A DNA stretch of 40,125 bases, taken from positions 64,001 to 104,125 of the IMG/VR virus record IMGVR_UViG_3300027734_000050. One strand, written 5' to 3'. The notes below the pieces were generated by a model that saw only the letters and a list, made by a program, of their open reading frames with translations, ran no database searches and was not told the origin of the DNA. The stretch is from a virus. Lineage: Duplodnaviria; Heunggongvirae; Uroviricota; Caudoviricetes. Of the stretch, positions 3,186 to 40,125 are shown one piece after another. The position numbers and the translations under genes were made by a program. Each line of letters opens with the position of its first letter. Within the stretch, counting starts at the first letter, position 1.

Positions 3186-6100
3186 TTAGTTTTGTCCTCT
3201 GAAGAACCTTGCGGCGTCAGTTTGAGTCACTTGCAATGCTTGCCCATCTGAAGGATTGCCGTTGGCTGGTTGATACCATCCAAACCCTTGTCGTACTCGT
3301 ATTGAAATTTCGTATCCGTCAGTGGGTGCTGTGGCGAATGTGATTGTAGCAGGGTCAACAGAATCTATAGTATAACCTGTATACACACGTATTCCGGCCA
3401 CATACACCAGGATGGCTTGCTCGGCAAAACTCAAACTCAACTCACTCAAATTGATATTTGGTGCAGTGAATGTTGTAGTAGCACCATCTGCTAGTGTGTT
3501 TGTATACACTATACGATCTTGATAGATCGTAGGTGCCAAATTGCCTTGTCCAAGATTGTACACGATACTGTCCACAGCATGGTCAGACGCTGCTGTACCT
3601 GCTGTACCACGCATCAAACTGCTGACAGTATTGTTATCAATATCAAGTTCACGATACATGATACGCTCACCATTGATGGTGATGATACCCCAGATATTGG
3701 TCTCCAGGTCAGGCTGTGTTAATGCACCAGCATCCAAGACATAGATTATATCCTGATCTTTACGCAATGGTTCTACCAACATAGTTGTAGTTTGTGGAGT
3801 CATACGGTACGTTGCCTGTACTCCGCGCATGTCTTGGAATATACGGAATTCCATGGCCTCGGGCACAACAGAATCAGTAAACAACTGCGCCACTACTACA
3901 TCAGTCACGCCGATTGCCGGCCCATGCAATACAAGTTCTTGTCCAACAACTAGATAGTCATCGCCGTAGAAAATACGATCTCCATTCTTTGTGACCCACA
4001 TCCTAGTTGGGTCAAGTACAACTCTACCCAATTGGAAGTCGTTAACAATGACCTGTATACCCTCAGTGTAGTCAAAACTTCCAGAATCACCAGTCACAGT
4101 TCCTTGGTCAAATGGTAATGAATCAAAAGGTTCTGTTATTACAGCACCCTCGGTTACAGGGCCTTGCCATAACAAGGTCACTATACTTTGTTGTGCAGTG
4201 TCATTCCACGAAGTCACAGAGACGATATCACCGTACTGTGGATAGAACCCACCAATGGTACGGAATACCAGTGTATAATCGTTGATACTACTGCTGTCAT
4301 CATATACCACATAGTCGGCTTTGGTAGTCACTGCAATCAAAATTTCTGAACCTGTTGCCGGTGGAATATTGAAATCTACATACCTAACATTATTACCGCT
4401 GGTGTAAGAGTCTAGAGAATAATTGAGACCCAATGCCTGCAATTGATTATCTACATAAACCAATACCTCCTGATCAGTAATCAATGCTACACTATATCCT
4501 CCACGGTTGGGCAATGCATATCCTGAACTTCCGTCGGAAATGTAGAATGCACCTTCGGGTGGTCTTGCACGAATACCATTTACTTCTACTACTATATTAG
4601 GAATGTTGGTACCCGACATAGTATTGTCAAGTCGATAATCTAATCTACCATCACTGACAAAATACTGAGTCTGAGGAGTCGACCATGAATCGGATTGACT
4701 GCCGTCAGTTTCACCAATAGCAGTGACATTTATCTCATCAGTTGATGTGTATGTGGTTGCAAAAGTTATATCTGTGGTGTTGTTTACACCTGCCACATAG
4801 GTATAATTGTTTATCAATTCACCATTTACAAAGATTACCATTTCAAAAATTTGATTTTCCTTTACAGGAATGTTCAAGCGATTGCCAACATCTGCACCAT
4901 TGTAACTGTTTTTATAAAGTTGATTACCACCACCTATGCCAAATATACTGAGTACCAATATATCACCATTGGCCGCCGGAGGTGCGCTTACGCTAGGAAT
5001 GATAGCAACAGTGTTGTTGACCCAATCCACGGCGTATGCCAAATCCTGGGTGAGATCACGTCGTTGTGTTTGGTTGGTCACACGTATCTGTACAGGATTG
5101 GGCACAATCCCATTGAAACTCTGTGCATATGCCGTGGTGCTATCGTATACCCATTTGACAATTTTCCAAGCAAATCCATGCCCGTTGAGATCCCAATCCC
5201 CACCAGGTTGTGTATACACACGGAAGTCCATGGTATCAAACTCTGAACCAGGTACCAATTCTTCAGGTGCGTGGCTTTCGTAAGGTCCAACAAATTCACC
5301 ACCCACCACATTGACGTCGGTGGGGCGGATTCCTAGATAGATGTTTGAAAAACTACTTTCGTAAATAGCATCCAAGATTCGCGGATCGTATGTAGGAAGA
5401 CCTTCTGGACCATAAGAAATATTATCCCAGGGGTTTACGTCCCAGTTACCCACATCAAAACCAGTATTTTGACTGAATGTAGGCGCTGACACTTGTACAC
5501 CCGGGTAAGTCACACCATCAATCAACAAACCTAAATTCAATCCTGGTTCGTTGGCAGTGGGCACATATAATCCCATGGTACGGTCAACTCCACTCAATGT
5601 GGCAGCATTGACCAAATTCCATTGGGCCGGATCAAAAGTAGCAGATTCTACGCCAGTTGAGTCACCACTGTCTGCTTGCCAAACTCTGTTATCATACCGA
5701 ACTTGTGTACCGTTATCATAATTTACATTTGGTTCCCAATCAACAATGGTAGATACATACTGGAACCTGTCATATTTCATTGTAATGTTGAAACTGCGTA
5801 CCAAGTTATAGTATTGTGTATTGCCGTATGTAGACGAACTTGGGTCTTGATTTTCTCCCACACCTGGTCCGGACATTCGAGCAACTAACTGTCCGCCAGT
5901 GCCATTGCCACCACTTAATACGATCAAAGCAGTAGTGATGTATCCCACGCCTGGGTTGATCACGGTAACTCCGGTCAATTTTCCTAGACTGTTTATGTTA
6001 ACTGTGAGTTCAGCAGGTGTAACACAATCGCCAATGACCGTGGCCACAGGCGGAACTGTGTAACCCGAACCACTGTCGGCCACAGCGGCACCTACCACAG

Positions 6101-9100
6101 CAAGAGTATAGTTTTGGTACCAGAAATTCCACGGCTGCGTTGTCCATATCAAACTGTCAGCAGCAGCATCACTGATATCGCTGGAAGTTCCAGTGCCTGT
6201 TGCTGTGCTCACAGTGTAAGGAGTCAATACTGGACTCACAAATTGATTAGGTACCACATCAGTGTCATAATATGCAGGTACATCAAAGTCCGTAATTGAT
6301 CCTTGGTAGTCATCCAATCCATTGTAAATCAAATTGAATTCACGTACCTGTACATGATAGGGTTTTACTTCTTGAATGTAGTCTAATACAAAATCTTGAT
6401 TATCACGTCGATATGTTTGGAAAGCCAACAATTCACGTATGTTATGATCGACATCAATCAAAGAAGTTTTAGTCAACCATTCTGGTGATTCAAATTCTGT
6501 GAGAGCAAAATTAAACATCAACATCAATGCACGATTGCGTTCGATCAACAATTCATCAATCAATAATTCCTGATTGATGGCCTGGATAATTTTACGGGTT
6601 TCGATCACAGGCTCTTGATCAAAATACTGTGAATCAAAAACTTGTGCATCCCATCCATATCTGGCCAATTGATAGTCCCACAGGGTGGCAGAAAGTTCTA
6701 TAGTGCCCGATTGAAGGCCCACACGCTCCCAGGTGCTAGTCGCCGCACGTAGATATATCTCCCATTTGCCTTGTGCATTGGAGGTTACACGTACACTAGA
6801 ACCCACGGGTGCTTGATACACACTTAATTTGCTGAGGTCGCTGTATACAGCCACTGTGGTAATAACTTGTTGGCTAGAATTATATCCTGGGAGATACCAA
6901 TCAATGTATGACCAATACCTACGTGTGTCGTAGTTTTGAACTCGGACTAATTCTAATGTAGCAAATGTTTTTGGTGCTGTGACTTGATAGATAGTCCAAA
7001 GACCATTTTCCCCTGAATCACTGACCACAAGATATCTGTATCCCACTGACACGAATGCAAGATTTTGATAACTGAGTTCTTCAAGATTGGCCACTCGTTT
7101 ATCCCACGCACCGCTGCCTTCTGGTGGCTCGGGTTCTCTGCTGTTTAATAAAACAAAACTGCGAATTTCGCTGATAGGTAACTGTGCTAGAACTGAATTG
7201 GCTCTTCCAAAATAGTTTTTCAATGCAAGGAATCTATCCACAAACATACTTTGACGTGGGCTAAACAATACCCCATATCGATTGGCTGCACTGACATTTA
7301 GATCAGGTACCAATGCTCCGAGAGAATTTACTCCGCATAAACTATCCTGGAATTTGAGATACAGGTTGTCAGGAAGGAACCCATCGGCACGATCTTGAGG
7401 AATTAAACTGTACTGTACGTGAACGTTATTCTCAGTTAGTTCTCGATCAAACTCAATACTGAGTATGGTATCCTGTGCCGAAATATAATTTGCAGCATTG
7501 TAAATTCCAGTTGCACCTGCGCTTAAAAATGCCACATAGGTAATACCCGATGCTACAGGATCGGCAATGTATCTTGCGATACCAAGAGCACTGAGCGTTT
7601 TACCGGCCTGGGTATCTATAGTAGGAATGTTACGAACCCAAAAATAGTATTTTGTAACAATAAAACCATTGACATCTACACCCGATACTACATTGTAACT
7701 GGTTGCGTTTCTAGGTATTCCTGGTCCGGTATAGCCGGCCGGAGGAACTGTACTGCTGATCCATTGATATATGTCAACATTTGCACCAGGGAATATCTGC
7801 CCCCAACGGCGTGCCGCATAAGTGATGTTGTCTTGGTTGGGGTCAATGAATCGTACTCTGTTGGTATCCCACCAAATTTCTCCAAGGTGGGCTGCTGCCC
7901 ATGTTTGACCATAGTTGTTTATAGGACCCACATTGTATGCAGCAGGGTCTACAGCACTAGTGTAGTTGATGTTTTCAGCGGCAGCACCTAGTATTTTTCC
8001 TTGCAATGGATCAATAAAATCAAAATATTGAGTTTTAGCACCAGTTGTGGCACTGTAAGTATACACAGAATTTATTAGGCTCACATTGACTACCGGCACT
8101 TGTTCACGTATCACGGTCCATGCTGGGGTCAAAGTAGGATTGTTGAACACAGCCACACGGCCATAATTCAAGTCGCTTAATGTACTGTCACCTAGATCAT
8201 TGCCCGGACTTCCTACCAGCAATACTCCATTGATGTAACTTATTGATGTACCAAACTGATCTAATTCTTGCACACGTTGATCATATATCTGTTGACCAAA
8301 CACAAACTTGCCTGGATCACTGAGTGAATCCGATGAACTTCTCAAATAATCATATGTATAAACCACACCGCTCTGATACAATGGCCCATTAAATGTGGTT
8401 GTACGGCCATCAAAGTATGTATCGCCTTGGTCGAATGTGTTGGGTCGATATAGATTGCCACGTGGTACACCCACGGACAATGTAGTGGCTGCGGTGTCAA
8501 TGTTCACTGCTGATCCAAATCCAACATTAACTGCCGGAGCGGGACTGGTCACTGTTTGTGTGTATGCAAAAGTATTGAAGCCAAGACTTTGGAATATATT
8601 TCCTATCAATCCGGGTAGCACAGTGAGTCTGTTGCCTGCGACAGCGGCCAATGCATTTTTAACACTCACAGTCAATAATCCATAGGTTGCGGTGCCCGGA
8701 AGTCCAGTACTGGCTATCACATTGGCGATACCTGATGCATTGATGTTGTTGACCAAATTAGTCACCCAGGTGCTGGTTTCCCAATAAGATGTATCAGTTA
8801 TGGCTACACCAGTAGGCACACTGCGTATAGATCGATACAGACCCGAGTTATATTGTACCACGGTATTGGCTGTCCAGGTCAAGGCGCTGTTCCATGTGGA
8901 CGGATTGCTGAGAATCACTTCTTGATCGTTGATCCGTATGCTTTGTCCAGGAATCAATTGTGGGTTAGGATTTATGCTGGTGGTGATTCCGTATACTCGG
9001 CTTTGATTTAAATTGCGTTGTACTGACCCTGCTCCTTCCAACACAGAACTATCTTGTGGTGCTCCGGTATACAAACTGCAACTATATCTACAGATATCCA

Positions 9101-12100
9101 CCGCTGAACCAAACTTTGCGGACTGGCTTGGAGCATTGGCTGTTACAATCTGCAATAGATTGAATGTGTTTACCTGGACCTGCAACACATCTCCCACAGC
9201 CAATGGCACATTTACCGTGACCGTTGTTCCACTCACTGTGAATTGTTGTACCACATTGTTAACCAAGAAAGTATTGTTCAATACCACTATGGTAGGATCT
9301 ACTAACACAGCGCCATCCACTGTGTAAGATGTTTGGGTAGGATCGGTAATTATAAAATTCTGTACAGAACGGTCATACACATAAACAGAACCCGAATCAT
9401 TGATGTTTTGATAATCATCATTGGGGGTCCCGATCATGACCTGACGCCCATCTATGGTACATGACACACTGGTTCCAAACCCGGCATCATCACTCAATCT
9501 AGCAGTGATAGTGGTAGATGCTGTGGTCTGTGCTGGGATTACTTGATATGTGCCTGTTCCACCTGTGGCCGAAATCAAACTTGTGATTCGTGTTCCTGCT
9601 GCCACTCCGGTGCCACTGAGCATCATGCCTACATACAGAGAAGATGATCCAGTAGGCACCGAAGTTACTGTCATGGTGCTGCCCGAGATAGAGGCTGCAA
9701 ACGGTAAGGTAAATTCTAAAGTATTAGCAAAAGTATAATAACTGCCGGTGTTTACAGCAATGGTTGCGGCTGCTGCGGGTGCAGTGAAAAATATCAACTG
9801 TCTACCAACGGTGCTATAGTCAGGATTGAATTCATAGTCAATGTTGGGTCGTTGTGTCACTCCGTTTAAGATCACTATAAAACTATAGATACTCACAGCG
9901 GTGTACAAGTATTCATCCAACTCAAATATTCTAGTAAATCCATCACCGATAAAACTGGTACTAGTTCTACGAGTGATGTTTAAGATCAAATCTTTAGGAG
10001 GAGGTGTATTTAGAACAACATTATTAGCAGTTAAGTTATAATCAACTCCGCTGAACAATTCTTGATTGTTTAACACCACACTGAGTTGATCTGGATATGC
10101 AGAATCTATAGTGATAGAATCAGAGTAATTGTAAATGTATGTATCACCATCAGTTACATATTTTACCGACTGAACTGGCAGTTCTACCAACCCATATGCA
10201 TACACTTTATTGATGCCCGGTGCACCTATGTACATCCAATGTTCATCCTGGCTCACAGCCACGCTGTATCCAAATTTTGCCAGATACACTAACTCTATAG
10301 GGTTTGGCGCCGTGAGCAACGATCTGATTGAAAAATCAACTGTGCCCGGTTGACGATATACCACTGCCGCATATCCCCGACTGTTGTAACTGTCCGGTGC
10401 TCCTACCACTTGCCAAGTTTGATTGCCGATGCTGACTGCATGACCAAACCCCACTGTATCGGTCGCAGATAGTTCAATAATTGCATTTTGTTCAAATGGT
10501 ACTATATACGATTTTATGTAAGTGTATATGGCACCATTGCCTGAATCATATCCTGGGCTGCCTACTATGGCGTATGCATTATCTGTAGATTGTGCTATGC
10601 TTTGTCCAAAAAAACTATCAGTAACTGGATCGCGTGCTTTGATTTCGTCTTTACTGGTAAAGACTTCTTGTTTTTCTAAAACTTCCCACAGGCCAAGTCC
10701 ATTGTTATCAACCCAGGCTTTGTTGCCCGGTATCAAACTATTGGCATAAGGCAAGTTGATTACATCGCTGGCCTGGCTCACTCTTTGAGTTTGTAAAACA
10801 AAACCAATGCCATTGCCTGTCTCAGTAATCTGGCTTTGGTTAGTAAAACTGAACACTGCTACCAACTGTGTGATACTGGGTATTCTCAATATCTTATAAG
10901 TCCCATCTACTATAGATGAGAAGAATCTAATTACAAATGTGAGATCCGCAGTGGTGGCATTTACTACAGAAAGACCATGTGGTTGAGTAAATGTAAACAC
11001 ACTGGTACCGTCGAGATTCGTGGTCACAGAAATCAAATAGCCGGGCAATTTGCTGATTCTATAAACGCCCCAATCATAATTATTGATCTTGGCTGCCCAA
11101 ACAGAAGATCCTAGATTGATCTCATTGAGAGTGGCATTTAAATTTACAGGAATACTTAGATCAAAAACTGTGATATCAACATCATCAAAGTTTACATAAC
11201 CTGCACTAGGCAATGCAGAGTTGGCTATCGGAACGATCTCTGTGGTCAGTATGTTTGGGCTTGTTATCTTGTAACTGCTTTTCCATAAATTGTTTACCAA
11301 GACTGTTTGATTGGCTTCGCTGCTTTCACCGCTGGCAATCACTTGTATAGTACTGGGATTAGAGTTCAACAATGCTTCATTCAATTGCAATTCATAAAAA
11401 CTTCTATTGGCATTGGCACCATAGATGCCGCGTTGGATCGCCCAATTTTCGTAAATTTGGTATTGTGTTGGACCGCGTCCGAGATCAGCAAGAGAAAATA
11501 TGTCAACTGCACGTAGTGTACCTTTGGTACCTAAAAATTGTTGATACAACTGTACTTGACTGGTACTATCTAATTCTAGATTTACCATGTATTGTCTGGG
11601 TTTCCATCCAATCAATCCATAGGCAAATAGGTCCTGACTGAGTTCAAGATTGGCGGTATACACATTATAACTGTTGGCCAACTGATTGCTCTTGTTAGCG
11701 GCATTGGGCAGCAGACCTTGCTGGATCTTTGTATAGTTAGATACTGTCCATTGTGTGATGTCAAATTCAGCCGAAGGTTGAACTATATCCAATGCACTGT
11801 AGTAAGTATTTTTCCATAGAACAATCTCACCTCTTGTGTATTTTTTCAACGGATTCCAGGACTCGATATTGTTTTGATTTAATATGAACCCTGGTGCATT
11901 AAGTTGGCCATTCCATTGTGCTGTATTCCATCCCACCAACCTCACACGACTTTGTCTTGCGGCAGTGACAGGATTGTAAATCAGATCGTTGAATATAGTA
12001 ACATTATCCAGTACGACCATATTTTCATAACTGGTAAATTTTATATTGAGAAAATTGATAGTCTCTGATGTCAGACTGGTAACACTAAAAGTATTGTCTA

Positions 12101-15100
12101 ATCTTTCAACCACAAGATCTCGTGCATTGAATTGTCTACCATCCGCATTGAGCACCATGTTTTCCACAGTTTGTGCAGCAATGCTGTCTACTATGGCACC
12201 GGGGCGGGTTACAATAAACTTATTGGCACCTGGATTCAAATTGATGATTGATCCTGTTTCCCAACCTTGATTGCTCCAATACAGGAATTCGTTGACCATC
12301 TGATTCCAGTCTAGCACATATCCGTTTTCAATGGTATTAAATGTTAACCCTTGATTTTGTAACAATGCACCATAACTCAGCAAAAAGTCAGCCATCAAAG
12401 TGCGGTTAATGAATACATATCCATATGGTATTTGCACCACATTATTGGTATATTCCACAGGCACACGTATGGTGCTACCGCCCGAAGAGATAGTGGCCAA
12501 TGCTCCACTTATACGGCTTTGCAATATATTGAAATATGGTTGTGACATGTTATAACCATAGACCGCCCACCCGGCCCCGGTGCTTTGTACAATCACACTG
12601 GAATATGTAAGTTGATCAAACGGCACATTTTTGTAAAACAACAAATTATAACTATTGTCGGGTATCAACAAACTGGAATTTAAACTACTTGGACTAGATT
12701 TTTCTGAGTAAATTTGTAACAGATTCTTTCCAGTAAAGGAAGCCATCCTATAACACAATCTCACATCAAGATTTTTAAGATCGGCAGTGAGAGCATCAGT
12801 GGAGTTAATACCACTTTGTCGATTGAAATCCACAATCCAATCAATATAACTGGCTTTGCTAGTACCGTTGCCATATATTTCGACTCCGTTAGCATCCAGT
12901 CTATAACGCTGGTTGTATAGATATTGATTGTAATCTGTGTCAAACTTGTACAAATCTCTATCAGCGAACAATGAGAAGAATTCAGCCGGGCGTGTCAGAG
13001 ACAACAATCGCATGATGGCAAACGGATACGCACTTGAGGTACGCCAAGCATTTTCTACTGGACCGTCATCACCGGCGATCCAACTGCGCTGAAAATCATT
13101 GCTGTTGAAATTACCAACCACGGTTTCCATGGGGCTCAGCAATGTACCTTCACTGCCTGCAGGTATCACATTTAACAGTCCTGAACGAATATATTCAGGA
13201 CGTACATAAGGTGCCACAGGATCTCTAACTAAGCCGGCTGCAAGGTCTCCCCACAACACCAAGTTACCTGATGTGTACGGCGCAGGACCATACTGATTTT
13301 CCCACCATACCGGACGCTCGCTGAATCCCAACATCTCCCATGGTCTTGTGTTGGGATAGATAGTGTCGTAAAAGTAGTTATAGATGCCGCGCCATGCACC
13401 TACCACCAGGGGTTGATTGTCCGTGAGTTTGTTTGATGCTGTGCTATAGTTCCAAGTGAACTGGTTATTCGATATGTAATCTTGTGTCTTGTAATCTAAC
13501 TTGTTCCATCCTACCCAGGTCAGGAAGTCCTGATTAAGAATTTCTTGCACCTCGGCAAGAGAATAATCTGTGGTACGGAATTGCCCCGGAATAACTTCTG
13601 CTGCGGTAAGTGGAATAGGATTACCGTCTAATTTCAAATTGTTATAAATTCTTGTTTCAAATTCCAACAACACCGCATCACGGAAATCGTTGAACGCTCT
13701 GGTAATTGATCCGTCATGCCCGCGTATTACAAAAATAGGGTCTACATAAGTGGTATCTAAAAATATTTCCGGAATATACGCCGGATACAATCCTAATTTG
13801 GTAGGAGTGTTAGGCACGTAGTTGCCATAGGTTGCTTCATACTCTTGAATAGTAACAACATCGCCCACCTCAAGCGGTATTAAAATCTCAATGGTAGGTG
13901 CGTTGGCACTGACCAAATAATCAATTCCTCTTGTGAGAAGTCTGCCCGGTAGCGCAAGCCGGCCGGTGTTAGCATCATTGCTGTTGCGATATAGATATAC
14001 CAACAATGCTTGATAATTTGCCGATGTGTAATTGTATATCTGTGTGAGATCAAATACCTGTTCGGTGATTGGAGTCACTGTGGTCTGAAGTTGTGTGTAT
14101 ACTGTGCCAATAGGCAACATGTCTGACCAATAGAATGGATTTGAACTTATACGACCAGTGTTGATTTCAGAAAATACTGCATTGAGTATGTCCGGTACAG
14201 TCATATTCACATAGTCGCCTTGACCTGCTGTGTTTAAAAACTGTGCTTTGAACTTTTCGTATTCTCTCGAATTGTATGCCAATGAAGCAAAAATATCATA
14301 TTCGGGCTTGCGAAGGAAGTATCCGGCCAGAGTCATTGGAGAACTCTGTTGCAGTATGTTCAATCCATAAGGAACAATATTACCAAGATCTCTTGAGTTA
14401 TTAGCACCGTTTATTGCACCAGTCAAGTTGATCAGATTTTGTGCAATGGTACTATAGTGTGTTCGTATTGTGCCCAATGTGAAGTTCTGGCTGTTTCCAT
14501 TCAATGGATTGTTTTCCAAATTGATAGGAACTTGATAGAATCCTACCACACTGACTTGATCGCTGAGTGCCAGTACTTCTACTATATCACCGTAAACTAA
14601 TTTTGTACCAGGATTCAATCGTATCACTGTGGTATTGTCAGTTGTGGTAACAGTATAGGCACCTGGATCTTGGAATAAACTACTGTAGTCCTGAGAAATG
14701 CTAGTGGCGTACAATTTAACACTAGGAATGGTTACAGTGGGCAATACTGCTATGTCTAAAATAAATGGTGTTGTGACTACTAATTCTTTGGATAGCACAG
14801 TTTGTGAAATATTCACAGAATATGTTCCAACACCTCCGGTGGCGTTGAGTAATCCTGTGATCTGAGTTCCAACAGCAACACCGGTGCCAGTTATGCCTTG
14901 ACCTATCAGCAATGACGATCCATTGGCAGGTGCCACGGTCACTGTGAGTGTAGTACCCGATATCGATCCTGTGATGGCTTCGGGAGTGTAGGTAAAATTA
15001 AACTGTTGATAGATCTGACTCTTGACAGCGGCTTTTTGCCAACCTATTTCCTTTTGATAGATGGTTCTATTTTCATACTGACGAACATAACCTATGCTGA

Positions 15101-17558
15101 TATTGTCAGTGTATTGAATATTGTCCATAACATAGGTGAATGTATCTTTGTAAAGATTGTTATCAAATACAATATCACCTATGTTGTTCAAACTCAGATA
15201 TTGCAACGGAAATCCCAGCACAGTGTCTGCCACAGTGCCCGGACCAATGGCATAACTGAACAGTGGGCTTCCGCCAACTATGGTTCCAAGATTGTTTTTA
15301 GTTATTGAAAATGTTGAACTTGGATAGATCGCACGGTTTCCCAAACTATACCCATTCAAGTCATACACATCAAACATGGGGTTTTGATTTATTTGGGTTT
15401 TTTGTTGTGCCTGGATCCATTGCACACCATCATAGTAAAATGTTGAGCCTTGTACATAATTGTTTGTATTGCTTAAAGCAACCACGCATTGGTCAATCAA
15501 TGCCTCTGCATCTGATGCCGGCACAAGATCAATCACCGGTTCAGCATACAATGTGCTGTCGGGTAATGGACCAGTGGCTGGATTGATAAAGTTTACCACG
15601 TAAATTTTATCTCTCACTTGAGGATCAGTGTCTTTGGCAAAGATTATTCTATTACCTTGTTGTACCAAATATCCATCTGCATAGTATTGTGTGGCTCCAT
15701 TGACATTGGAGAATGCATCTGTCTGAGTGAGATCTACAACATTTACCGGGGCCTTGGATTCAGTACCCATGTTGTATAATTTCGTACCGCCTCGAAATTC
15801 TAAAATAGGGCGCTTGGCACGAAAATTATTATCTAAAACTGCGGTTGTGTTGTTGTATGCTGCGGCTGCATTTATCACCTCAACATGAAACCAACGATTT
15901 GATCTGGTCCAGGCATTGAGATCAGGACTATCTAATGCTATGGTAATGTAATCTGGATCCAAGGGCTCATTCAATGTGCCATCCCAGTTGGCGGAATCCC
16001 ATGGAACAAAATCCCATGGAGTGCTGGCAGTTCGAACAATTTCCGGAGTCACATAGTCGGTTACCGGTAATAATTGTATTGCTGTGCCTACTCCTGCCAC
16101 ATAATAAGTTTGACCTTGGTAACTGGAAGGTACTACTGTGCCTTGGAATGTAATTTTAAGATTGTTGGTAAACACAACTCCATTGGGAGAGATATATGTT
16201 GTTTTGCCAAGGATCTCGGTATCTACATTGATAGATTGAGTTTGTGTGGGTTCAATCAGTCTGATCTGTCCAAAAATTTCTGGGTTGGTTCCGTCTTGAT
16301 ACCACAGTAGATCTTTTACAGCAGTCAGCAAAGGTATCTGTTCAAAATACCCTTCGGCATTGCGATACCATTGTGTAGTGGACCATTCAGTGCCAAACAA
16401 GACAGTAAACTTAGTAAACTCTACACAAGGAGTAACCGATGACAGTTTGAGAATTGGCTCACCGCTTGTGGTGTATTCATATTGTATCAACCAAACACTA
16501 TATCTGGTATTGACATCTACAATAGGTGTGGTTTGATCGTATGGTAGATAATCGTAACTACCTGGCTGTCCATTGTTGCTGGCTGCCTGTGCTAATGGGT
16601 CAAATTGTGTAGTGATCAACCAGCCGCCATCTTGAGGATCAGCGATAGTGTTGGTGAACACTATGGTACGATTCTGCAGATTAGTGATGCCATCAATACC
16701 AGTGGGATATTGTTCCAAGAATGTAGATAAGAACACATTGTTGACTTGATCAAACTTCAATGTAGTAGTAAGTAGATCCACTTGTCCGGCGGTAGGCAGG
16801 CTAGGTATGAGTTCTAGATCATAGTAGAATTGCTGTGCATTTTTGTATGGAACATCAAAGGTCACTGTGCCTTGATCTTCACCGTTATTAGTAACACCCA
16901 GCACAGTCCTTGAACTGATGTTAGGAGCATAAGGCAACACGCCATTTACTCCCGGTTCGGCTTGTATCCAGAATTGATTAGGAACTTGATTAACTGCGAA
17001 TTCGTAGTTGCCACCACGAACCAAAGTGATTGTGGGATTTTTTCCAGCAAGACCCGAGAACTCATAATAGTTGTCTGCTCTAGTTACATCAAATGTATCA
17101 GTGGTGGGAATAACTGTAGCACTTACATCTACCGACGGTGGTCCGCCAGGTAGCCAATAGTATTGAGAATAATTGCTAAATTTATCAAAATTTATAAAAG
17201 GATCCCAGGTATAGTAATCACTGGTATACAATCGTGCAGCATTGTCAGTGAACGCGCCCTGGCGTGCCAATGCATCCGACATGCCAGGATATGTTATAGC
17301 GTCAGAGATAGTGTTGGCATCTGGTACCAAACTGATCACGCCCGGTTCAAGTTGATAATTGGCTCTATTGGTGGTAGGCTCAATCACATAGTAATCATTG
17401 GGATTGACCCCGGGTCCTACATGACGTCCAACAAACCCTTGCGTCTTTTTAAATTCAGGGTCCTGGGTCAATTGATCCAGTGTAGCCGCTAAGAACTGTT
17501 TGTTAGTGCTGGTTTGGAAAATTGGTGGTAGAAAATCTACTGTTCTAGTAGTGGCCAT
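3186..17558 (-). CDS. Giant (4790 aa) multidomain baseplate wedge/fibre protein
   Basis: 14.4-kb uninterrupted ORF whose start overlaps the gp6-like stop (TAATG). It contains FG-GAP-like repeats, CBM5/12-like modules and many repeated beta-sandwich modules. Confidence 0.85.
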
Positions 17559-38950: not shown

Positions 38951-39913
38951 ATGATAGCAATTTTTACAGATCCGGCCATTGGTGGGACTTTTTTAGAATG
39001 GTCTATCTATTATTTGGCAGGACACAGTCATTACTATTCAATCCACAAAAAAACTCAAATACCAGTAACCAACACACCACTCACAAACATCAATGCACAT
39101 AATTTTCTTCCAAATGTAATAGCAGATAGAAAAAACGCCAATCTGATCATTCCAGACGTGATCAAGCAATCAGACCGCATTCAAACAATTTATTTTAATT
39201 ATTTTGCTGAATCAGCACCATACATTGAACAGTTATTACCAGTCGTATCAAAATCTATAATACTCACCATGTCTCCTGAACAGGCACTGTATCGTTGTCA
39301 TTTTAAAACAAGATTTGGGTCGGACCCAACTCCTTCGTTGTCTGACAGTGATATCATGCTGACCAATGATCAAGATAGATTTGATGACTATGTTAATTTC
39401 TTTTTCAAACAGTCAAAAAACATATGGGATCAACAAACGCTCACCAATACCTGGGACACTAGAGAATTTTTAGCACTGAATTTCCGACCATTTGACACTT
39501 TAAAAATAACAGAAGAAATAAATCTAGATGTTGATCACTATCATGTCAATGCTATGGAACTATGGGATAGGTTTGATGATAGAGTCAGTGATTTGTTTAG
39601 ATATTTGGATTTAGACATCAATGAAAAAAATTTAGAAAACTGGATCAAGATATACCAACAGTGGAAAACAGTACACAAAGATAGAATATTTTTTATATGG
39701 TATTTTGACATCATCATTGACTACGTGGTCAAAGGATACAATCTTGATCTAACAAGATTCAACTTGGACATCTGTCAGGAAGCTGCAATACAACATGCAT
39801 TGATCTATAGGCACAATCTCAATCTCAAAACTTGGCAATTAGAAAAATTTACAAACACACGGCAACTACACGAATTATTAGAGCCAAACATACATCCCCT
39901 GTCACAATATTAA
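38951..39913 (+). CDS. P-loop/sulfotransferase-like hypothetical protein (homolog of 33977..34855)
   Basis: MIAIFTDPAIGGTFLEWSI N-terminus; IIDYVVKG..L.....LDICQEAAIQHAL C-terminal helix pattern; AT-rich. Confidence 0.5.
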   Translation: MIAIFTDPAIGGTFLEWSIYYLAGHSHYYSIHKKTQIPVTNTPLTNINAHNFLPNVIADRKNANLIIPDVIKQSDRIQTIYFNYFAESAPYIEQLLPVVSKSIILTMSPEQALYRCHFKTRFGSDPTPSLSDSDIMLTNDQDRFDDYVNFFFKQSKNIWDQQTLTNTWDTREFLALNFRPFDTLKITEEINLDVDHYHVNAMELWDRFDDRVSDLFRYLDLDINEKNLENWIKIYQQWKTVHKDRIFFIWYFDIIIDYVVKGYNLDLTRFNLDICQEAAIQHALIYRHNLNLKTWQLEKFTNTRQLHELLEPNIHPLSQY

Positions 39914-39924
39914 ATTTATCACGA

Positions 39925-40125
39925 CTCTGTGTTGAGTGACATGACTCAACCCCATTGAGGAACGGTGCGATACCCGGTCTGGACTTGGGCGTCAAAGGCA
40001 ATTGCTAACTTAAGGCAACAAATGGTTGGGGCTCTGTGAAACAGATACAACCCCTGCTTATAGGACTTGGATCTTGATCGGGTTACTAGGGTTCCGTTGA
40101 TATGTGAAGCTTGAGTAGGGGGTAC
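39925..40125 (+). ncRNA. Candidate large structured non-coding RNA (truncated by window end; strand inferred)
   Basis: No ORF; GC-richer than the preceding gene. Helices found by hand: GTTGAGT/ACTCAAC (39931-37/39944-50), CCCGG/TTGGG (39973-77/39985-89), TTGCT/GGCAA (40002-06/40014-18), TCTGT/ACAGA (40033-37/40041-45), CCCCTGCTTA/TGAGTAGGGG (40051-60/40112-21). G-U wobbles in three of these favour the + strand. Confidence 0.6.

Follow-up and report, generated by a model that had tools for sequence, protein, structure and literature searches.

The region from 39923 to 40125 almost certainly belongs to a real structured RNA gene. Taken together, the data are probably best read as the 5' half of a gene that encodes a stable, pseudoknotted and trans-acting non-coding RNA (ncRNA) of about 390 nt, which is carried by freshwater T4-like phages. 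The initial annotation, made from the letters alone, had proposed the 5' portion of a large phage ncRNA, either new or divergent. This was borne out by about 190 nt of further conserved sequence in the homologues, by covariation, by the non-coding nature of the element and by its near-confinement to phage contigs. In the form found here the RNA is uncatalogued, i.e. absent from Rfam.

All positions refer to the window, by which we mean the whole analyzed stretch of DNA. With 40,125 bases it forms the terminal part of an IMG/VR virus record of 104,125 bases, and its end is the end of the contig. Markers of T4-like phages are present in the window, namely a gp6-like baseplate wedge protein, a gp5-like hub-lysozyme and gp46/gp47-like SbcCD proteins. 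The features discussed below are compiled in Table 1; numbers preceded by L designate the compared loci.

Table 1. Features in and around the RNA element, with window coordinates
Feature	Position	Strand	Remarks
GIY-YIG nuclease gene, SegE-type, 142 aa	38514-38942	+	Pfam PF19835, E = 1.2e-32
320-aa gene	38951-39913	+	inserted between nuclease gene and RNA
Structured RNA gene, 5' half	39923-40125	+	~203 of ~390 nt; cut by contig end
Closing helix H0	GAC 39923-39925 / GUC 39991-39993	+	encloses P1, H2 and H3; predicted 5' fold boundary
Hairpin P1	39931-39950	+	7 bp, loop GACAUG
Helix H2	CCCA 39951-39954 / UGGG 39986-39989	+	encloses H3
Hairpin H3	39959-39980	+	3+3 bp, A-G mismatch 39962/39977, loop UGCGAUAC
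Hairpin H4	40002-40018	+	UUGCU/GGCAA, invariant loop AACUUAA
Hairpin H5	40028-40054	+	GGGG/CCCC plus UGUG/UACA
Hairpin H6	40061-40088	+	10-bp stem, four G-U pairs, bulged A40085
Near-invariant stretch ACUAGGGUUCCGUUGAUAUGUGAAGC	40085-40111	+	invariant alignment columns
5' strands of two helices	40112-40125	+	partners past contig end; covariation
Other contigs ending within the RNA gene			L003, L004, L006, L008, L010, L029, L049, L083, L085, L100, L117, L124, L130, L131

Extent of the RNA element

The window element aligned to positions 2-206 of a 392-position profile that was built from full copies (blastn, nhmmer). In all full-length copies the conserved block extended approximately 190 nt further, resulting in a total of about 390 nt (e.g. 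L047:296-686). Since these copies continue beyond the aligned part, the window holds the 5' half of a longer element. We infer the 3' half of this phage's RNA, including the boxes described below, from its relatives L049 and L035, which are 98-99% identical. The G+C content rises past the end of the 320-aa ORF at 39913, and that of the element lies above that of its flanks.

The initial annotation had recognized no tRNA, tmRNA or terminator pattern, and this held throughout. ARAGORN reported no tRNA or tmRNA gene in the window or in 15 related loci, and no terminator-like site was present in 39925-40125. The consensus of an intrinsic terminator was not found at the ends of the RNA, the U tract of its 3' stem-loop being weak, and the spacer that separates the RNA from the preceding stop codon lacked a sigma-70 promoter consensus. 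Out of 4227 Rfam families, among them GOLLD and ROOL, none reached its gathering score in the window and six loci. At E values up to 10 only noise and nothing relevant was returned for window 39700-40125 and for the full copy L047:270-720.

Predicted fold of the 5' half

A first structure pass by RNAalifold on 25 sequences yielded 37 pairs with compensatory changes. The helices in Table 1 were defined from an all-against-all covariation matrix of a 114-sequence alignment and were counted on a fresh alignment of 111 distinct sequences. There, the nine helices with their 43 pairs were paired in 95.1% of 4,706 cells, and 29 of the 43 pairs showed double changes, i.e. changes on both sides. In total, 446 double-change cells were observed as compared to 98 ± 12 after shuffling, and none of 500 shuffles reached the observed number. 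When the partners were slid by 1-3 columns as a control, pairing fell to 31-45%. The covariation among related phages that the initial annotation had suggested looking for is hence present, and the comparison shows a predicted fold of nine covarying helices in the window, two pseudoknots and two helices that would extend into the missing 3' half.

All five local hairpins that had been noticed in 39925-40125 keep their pairing by compensatory changes among the 111 homologues. The 10-bp stem described at the same time is present as well (40061-40070 / 40078-40088, hairpin H6), but it contains the four G-U pairs and the bulged A listed in Table 1 instead of two G-U pairs. Read from the opposite strand, such conserved G-U pairs would become A-C, so the + strand represents the RNA sense.

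The closing helix H0 was paired in 99.7% of the cells and all of its three pairs change on both sides (GC:97, CG:12). Helix H2 was paired throughout (100%), with double changes in three of its four pairs. For hairpin P1 only 77% pairing was counted, a figure that is due to 28 rows aligned one register off; six of its seven pairs carry double changes, with UA, CG, GC and AU at several pairs. H3 (98% paired) changes from CG to UA or AU at 39963/39976 and from GC to UA at 39964/39975, while H4 (94%) shows double changes in four of five pairs and H6 was paired in 99% of the cells. The top covarying pair of the whole matrix, 40028/40054, is found in H5 (UA:56, GC:40, CG:10, AU:3).

Two pseudoknots are predicted to reach past the window end. 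The H6 loop (40071-40077) covaries with a stretch located about 95 nt downstream (L047 539-546), 51 sequences showing double changes. Here, the pair 447/544 of L047 reads UA:57, CG:48 and UG:6, and four pair types occur at 450/540. In the second pseudoknot, the partner of GUUGA (40096-40100) is UCAAC, the loop of the following hairpin, shortly beyond the window end; this pairing covaries between the forms GUUGA/UCAAC, GUUGU/ACAAC and GUUGG/CUAAC. Additionally, the last nucleotides of the contig provide the 5' strands of two helices. UGAG (40112-40115) pairs with CUCA at L047 532-535, where the pair 486/535 reads UA:58 and AU:54, and GGGGGU (40118-40123) pairs with GCCUCC at L047 509-514 (492/514 reading GC:86 and AU:28).

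None of the long-range options of the initial annotation was recovered. Pairing of CCATT with AATGG showed 0 compensatory changes and was no better than shuffles. The same was true for the putative pseudoknot of AACGG with CCGTT, the CCGUU region taking part instead in the second pseudoknot with another partner. Both options for GGTTG with CAACC, which had suggested alternative folds, suffer from uncompensated changes in up to 64% of the sequences; the actual helix of this region joins GGGG (40028-40031) to CCCC (40051-40054) in a different register. We also discarded two long-range helices returned by RNAalifold, GUCA/UGAC and GAGU/ACUC. These join invariant columns, and the matrix favours GAC/GUC (H0) and UGAG/CUCA.

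It had been expected that a genuine RNA would fold better than shuffled controls. This did not hold for the truncated piece of 201 nt, whose minimum free energy of -57.4 kcal/mol equals the shuffle mean of -57.42 (z = 0.00; minus strand z = +0.16), but the full RNA was moderately more stable than its shuffles (z = -2.5). The predicted structure is evident from the comparison of homologues and not from the folding energy of the piece.

Besides the common fold, an expansion site was noticed in the 5' domain. Some copies (L043, L065, L072, L079, L106 and L151; alignment columns 69-87) contain an additional hairpin of about 19 nt that separates H3 from the 3' strand of H2, e.g. GAUAGAAGAGGCGCAAGCCUAC.

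Homologues, sister form and twin boxes

An exact match to a 35-mer of the stretch was found in 8 other viral contigs, and an invariant 16-mer from 40085-40111 is present in at least 120. Full copies of the RNA occur in at least 120 IMG/VR phage contigs, and the nhmmer profile detected 164 copies among the 202 loci that were fetched. Compared with homologous loci, window 39921-40125 showed 87-99% nucleotide identity as opposed to 70-78% for the adjacent gene; L049 was 99.4% identical to the window over 176 nt. The adjacent 320-aa protein shares 30-48% identity among the loci through which the homologues were found. Part of the high sequence identity of the RNA could stem from a recent spread with a mobile nuclease gene, beyond constraint alone.

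At least 15 independent contigs break inside the RNA gene, i.e. the present one and at least 14 more (Table 1). It is likely that assemblies of mixed related phages collapse on this near-identical stretch; the near-identity of rRNA genes breaks metagenome assemblies likewise.

The RNA is essentially confined to phage contigs, and its carriers are uncultured freshwater T4-like phages. No blastn match to the window tail, to a full copy or to the sister form described below was obtained among GenBank phages. Among prokaryotes (one genome per species, approximately 185,000 species), a search by exact motifs, which returned mostly chance matches, revealed the RNA in three MAG contigs only. Two of them belong to the Haliscomenobacter sp. 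MAG EUL_031 (contigs of 148 kb and 183 kb); each holds one full copy (L181:472-872 and L187:4015-4405), and in L187 the nuclease gene lies upstream of it. The third is a 1.7-kb contig of the Flavobacteriales MAG EUL_069 (L204). These MAG contigs are probably binned phage DNA. For the two large contigs, which look like phage genomes, the binning with a Bacteroidota MAG is a weak hint at the host at best.

Among DNA runs, X1-X4 contain 88-93% of the window tail, and six metatranscriptome runs contain part of the stretch. Four runs from four studies were compared with L047:1-1200, and all of them had contigs over the RNA (296-604). Several of these contigs run upstream and contain the last codons of the nuclease gene, its stop codon, a spacer of 7-12 nt and then the RNA. 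The RNA-library data consist of assembled contigs, which carry neither strand, depth nor transcript ends and may include carried-over DNA; uncovered parts of L047 therefore have no evidential weight. Because no promoter-like site was found in between and the contigs bridge nuclease stop and RNA, the RNA appears to be co-transcribed with its upstream gene.

Six loci (L011, L015, L020, L023, L034 and L036) carry a sister form. There, the Rfam family RF01718 (Polynucleobacter-1) was matched with 90-120 bits. The gathering threshold of this family is 37 bits, a score that the window element did not reach; neither in window 39700-40125 nor in L047:270-720 was RF01718 matched at E values up to 10. 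In the sister loci, only positions of about 175-392 of our profile were matched, immediately following the RF01718 match; these RNAs are hence two forms of one larger RNA. The forms have a 3' domain of approximately 220 nt in common, whereas the 5' domain is that of the window in one of them and RF01718 with a linker in the other. The window holds mainly the form-specific 5' domain, since the sister form has RF01718 at this place and only the 3' domain is shared. Similarity between the forms begins at about 40085, so that about 40 nt at the start of the shared part (40085-40125) lie in the window. The sister form also seems to have an equivalent of H6 and its pseudoknot loop.

The RNAs that bear RF01718 continue for about 290 nt past this part with a 3' domain homologous to that of the present RNA. 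Both forms have the CCGUUG / NCAAC pseudoknot, the GGUACCGG..CCGCCUC hairpin, the twin boxes, a GAGC..GCGAA hairpin and the terminal stem-loop in common. They also occupy the same locus, beside homologues of the 320-aa gene on contigs of T4-like phages, and share with Polynucleobacter-1 the freshwater habitat. However, the layout of the 5' domains is different. In Polynucleobacter-1 three hairpins are followed by a closed two-hairpin stem (about 141 nt), whereas the window element begins with a closing helix around two nested hairpins and continues with three more hairpins. Of the roughly 430 nt of the sister RNA, the RF01718 model spans just the initial 141 nt and does not enter the shared 3' domain. 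In the sister RNAs L036:4951-5385, L011:3542-3960 and L034:1423-990 (minus strand), about 290 nt are conserved and unmodelled; they comprise the pseudoknots, the twin boxes and the terminal stem-loop.

Polynucleobacter-1 is listed in one table row as 'Burkholderiales, fresh water/estuary' and as possibly cis-regulatory (Weinberg et al. 2010, Genome Biol 11:R31, PMC2864571). Within the searchable literature, this row is the only mention of the motif. Polynucleobacter-1 and the RNA of the window are both orphans as to function.

The 3' domain, which in this phage would lie past the contig end, contains two modules of the type AUGAC-N6-YCU-[box]. The N6 parts pair with each other, so the two boxes of 7 nt (RGAURAW), which lie about 50-60 nt apart, would sit in a pseudo-symmetric junction. 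Seven different words occur in the boxes. Nevertheless, both boxes of an RNA were identical in 108 of 109 distinct full-length RNAs, L049 included. On a quick tree from which the box columns were left out, at least 23 changes of the word were counted, an approximate figure. Neither the RNA nor the 520 nt preceding it contained a covarying partner of the boxes. In 0.9 Mb of flanks, neither the cognate word nor its complement was enriched, and no residue of the nuclease tracked the box word beyond shared ancestry (best normalised MI 0.4-0.5).

Two readings of motifs in the 3' domain were rejected. As C/D boxes the twin boxes do not qualify, given that their words deviate from RUGAUGA and that the GA dinucleotides are lost in variants. 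A hammerhead-like reading of UGAUGAGC..GCGAAAUC in the 3' hairpin fails on variants with CUGAGC..GCGAAAG, which form a plain stem with a GA/GAA internal loop.

Gene neighbourhood, possible functions and related systems

The RNA is placed just after a small GIY-YIG gene and convergent with baseplate-hub genes. A nuclease gene was found upstream and on the same strand as the RNA in 109 of 114 distinct loci; five loci had room upstream and no nuclease gene there. The gap between both was below 100 nt in 81 of the 114 loci, usually 7-16 nt, and an insertion separated them in 16. The 320-aa gene is located directly upstream of the RNA in 12 loci, i.e. in this window and in 11 others, with the nuclease gene further up where checked. 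In the window the nuclease gene lies about 1 kb upstream of the RNA. The 320-aa gene, which has no Pfam or PHROG match, behaves as a movable cassette. In the loci compared (L007, L038, L044, L094 and others) it was found in the gap between nuclease gene and RNA or downstream of the RNA in opposite orientation.

On its downstream side, the RNA faces two convergent genes, one of 96 aa and one for the baseplate hub. The 142-aa nuclease is covered end to end by the 123-position model of the catalytic domain, with no extra domain. Across the loci its median amino acid identity was 79% as compared to 51% for the hub protein; that of the RNA was 85%. For a free-standing homing nuclease, conservation so far above that of the hub protein is unusual. 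In T4-like phages such nucleases typically reside next to highly conserved genes, e.g. segB of T4 in the tRNA cluster. A homing-type nuclease gene that lodged beside a highly conserved target gene and spreads together with it fits this context; a functional partnership of nuclease and RNA would be compatible with it too.

Two further observations concern the window. Two adjacent, overlapping radical-SAM genes with weak matches to Pfam PF04055 (36608-37474 and 37447-38475, both +) lie directly upstream of the nuclease gene and follow the gp46/gp47-like SbcCD genes. Beside the baseplate wedge gene, a single ORF of 4,790 aa (3186-17558, minus strand) is very large for the structural region of a phage.

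Several other explanations of the element have to be weighed. That it represents the 3' end of a minus-strand protein gene (frame 39946-40125), an outcome which the initial annotation had regarded as contradicting an RNA, can hardly be maintained. There is indeed a frame of 59 codons on the minus strand that is open to the window end and runs off it, the single long frame of an element without any conserved open frame. However, the full copy in L047 has no ORF of at least 50 aa over 374-683 on either strand, homologues differ by indels of 1-3 nt in loops, and substitutions are compensatory in the stems and not periodic by three. We regard it as very improbable, too, that the element acts at the DNA level without RNA function, be it as a replication origin, packaging or recombination site or as a co-converted homing target. 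In its favour, the element lies at a module boundary beside a homing-type nuclease gene, nuclease gene and element form an island of high identity, and the RNA-library support comes from contigs only. Yet the compensatory changes in 29 of 43 pairs and the strand-specific G-U pairs point to selection on the folded + strand, and the pseudoknots covary across the forms. Furthermore, no iteron-like repeat is evident in the sequence or the alignments, and the G+C content exceeds that of the flanks.

Two further alternatives accept a folded RNA. A cis-acting 3' untranslated element of the upstream mRNA, serving as stabiliser or terminator at the convergent junction or regulating nuclease expression, would agree with a start 7-16 nt past a stop codon without a promoter-like site in between and with the covarying stem-loop that faces the convergent genes at the end. 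Polynucleobacter-1 has been marked as possibly cis-regulatory in the table mentioned above (PMC2864571). We nevertheless consider this explanation improbable. About 390 nt with two pseudoknots and long invariant single strands exceed the needs of a terminator or stabiliser, and the upstream gene varies, being the nuclease gene, the 320-aa gene or, in L047, another ORF. The concerted change of the twin boxes would have no role in such an element, and the 520 nt upstream contain no complementary covarying site. Alternatively, the RNA could guide or scaffold the 142-aa enzyme, which consists of the catalytic domain only, and supply the target recognition with the boxes as recognition words. The steady upstream position of the gene on the same strand, usually at 7-16 nt distance, its protein without any extra domain, the unusual conservation of this enzyme relative to the hub protein in the same loci and the RNA-library contigs that bridge gene and RNA are all in line with such a partnership. 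Still, it seems unlikely to us, as no residue tracks the box word beyond ancestry, the flanks show no excess of cognate words or complements, five loci with upstream room are without the nuclease gene, and the 320-aa gene is directly upstream of the RNA here and in 11 other loci. Adjacency as well as conservation are explained by the habit of homing nucleases to settle by conserved genes.

The preferred reading is a stable ncRNA that acts in trans. For this RNA the following mode of action may be proposed. The RNA would end at the covarying 3' stem-loop. The 5' domain in the window would be a clade-specific scaffold, which the Polynucleobacter-1 motif replaces in the sister clade, and it would dock by the two pseudoknots onto the shared 3' domain as the putative working part. 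This domain would display the two single-stranded 7-nt boxes in the pseudo-symmetric junction. Because the boxes stay identical while the word drifts, one single trans-acting reader would most likely read both of them, either a nucleic acid that is bound twice or a partner of two-fold symmetry. The reader of the boxes presumably acts in trans. That the RNA itself works in trans through the twin boxes we hold to be quite possible, if short of probable. A long shot is the idea that the boxes are programmable recognition words of a new RNA-directed phage system, the word being shown twice to bind two copies of a nucleic-acid target or both of its strands. The words would then have been re-set at least 23 times in evolution as targets change, and the adjacent nuclease might be an RNA-guided GIY-YIG enzyme.

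With these data the orphan Rfam motif Polynucleobacter-1 becomes the exchangeable front domain of a phage RNA that is three times larger. The RNA is abundant in T4-like phages of lakes (at least 120 contigs) and strongly constrained, and the joint change of the boxes with kept identity is a clear and testable sign of a trans-acting reader. If this reader were identified, a new phage-host interaction or a new RNA-directed activity might come to light. As regards annotation, the conserved RNA gene would explain the break point of this contig and of at least 14 others. Large structured RNAs of unknown function are, to our knowledge, rare, and those that were solved tended to reveal new biochemistry.

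Among known systems, the RNA resembles T4 species 1 and species 2 (rnaC and rnaD), stable small RNAs which are encoded beside the homing nuclease gene segB within the tRNA cluster. Like these, it is an orphan ncRNA that adjoins a GIY-YIG Seg-type gene in a T4-type genome. In contrast to rnaC and rnaD it is much larger and no tRNA genes were found near it, neither in the window nor in 15 loci. With GOLLD and ROOL it has in common that it is a phage-borne, highly structured and large ncRNA of orphan function, known mainly from metagenomes. However, neither the window nor six full loci matched the Rfam model of either, and with about 390 nt the RNA is shorter than GOLLD and ROOL, which have a length of roughly 600-800 nt. 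Unlike for GOLLD and ROOL, the host phages are freshwater T4-like phages, and we know of no description of twin boxes for either of these two RNAs.
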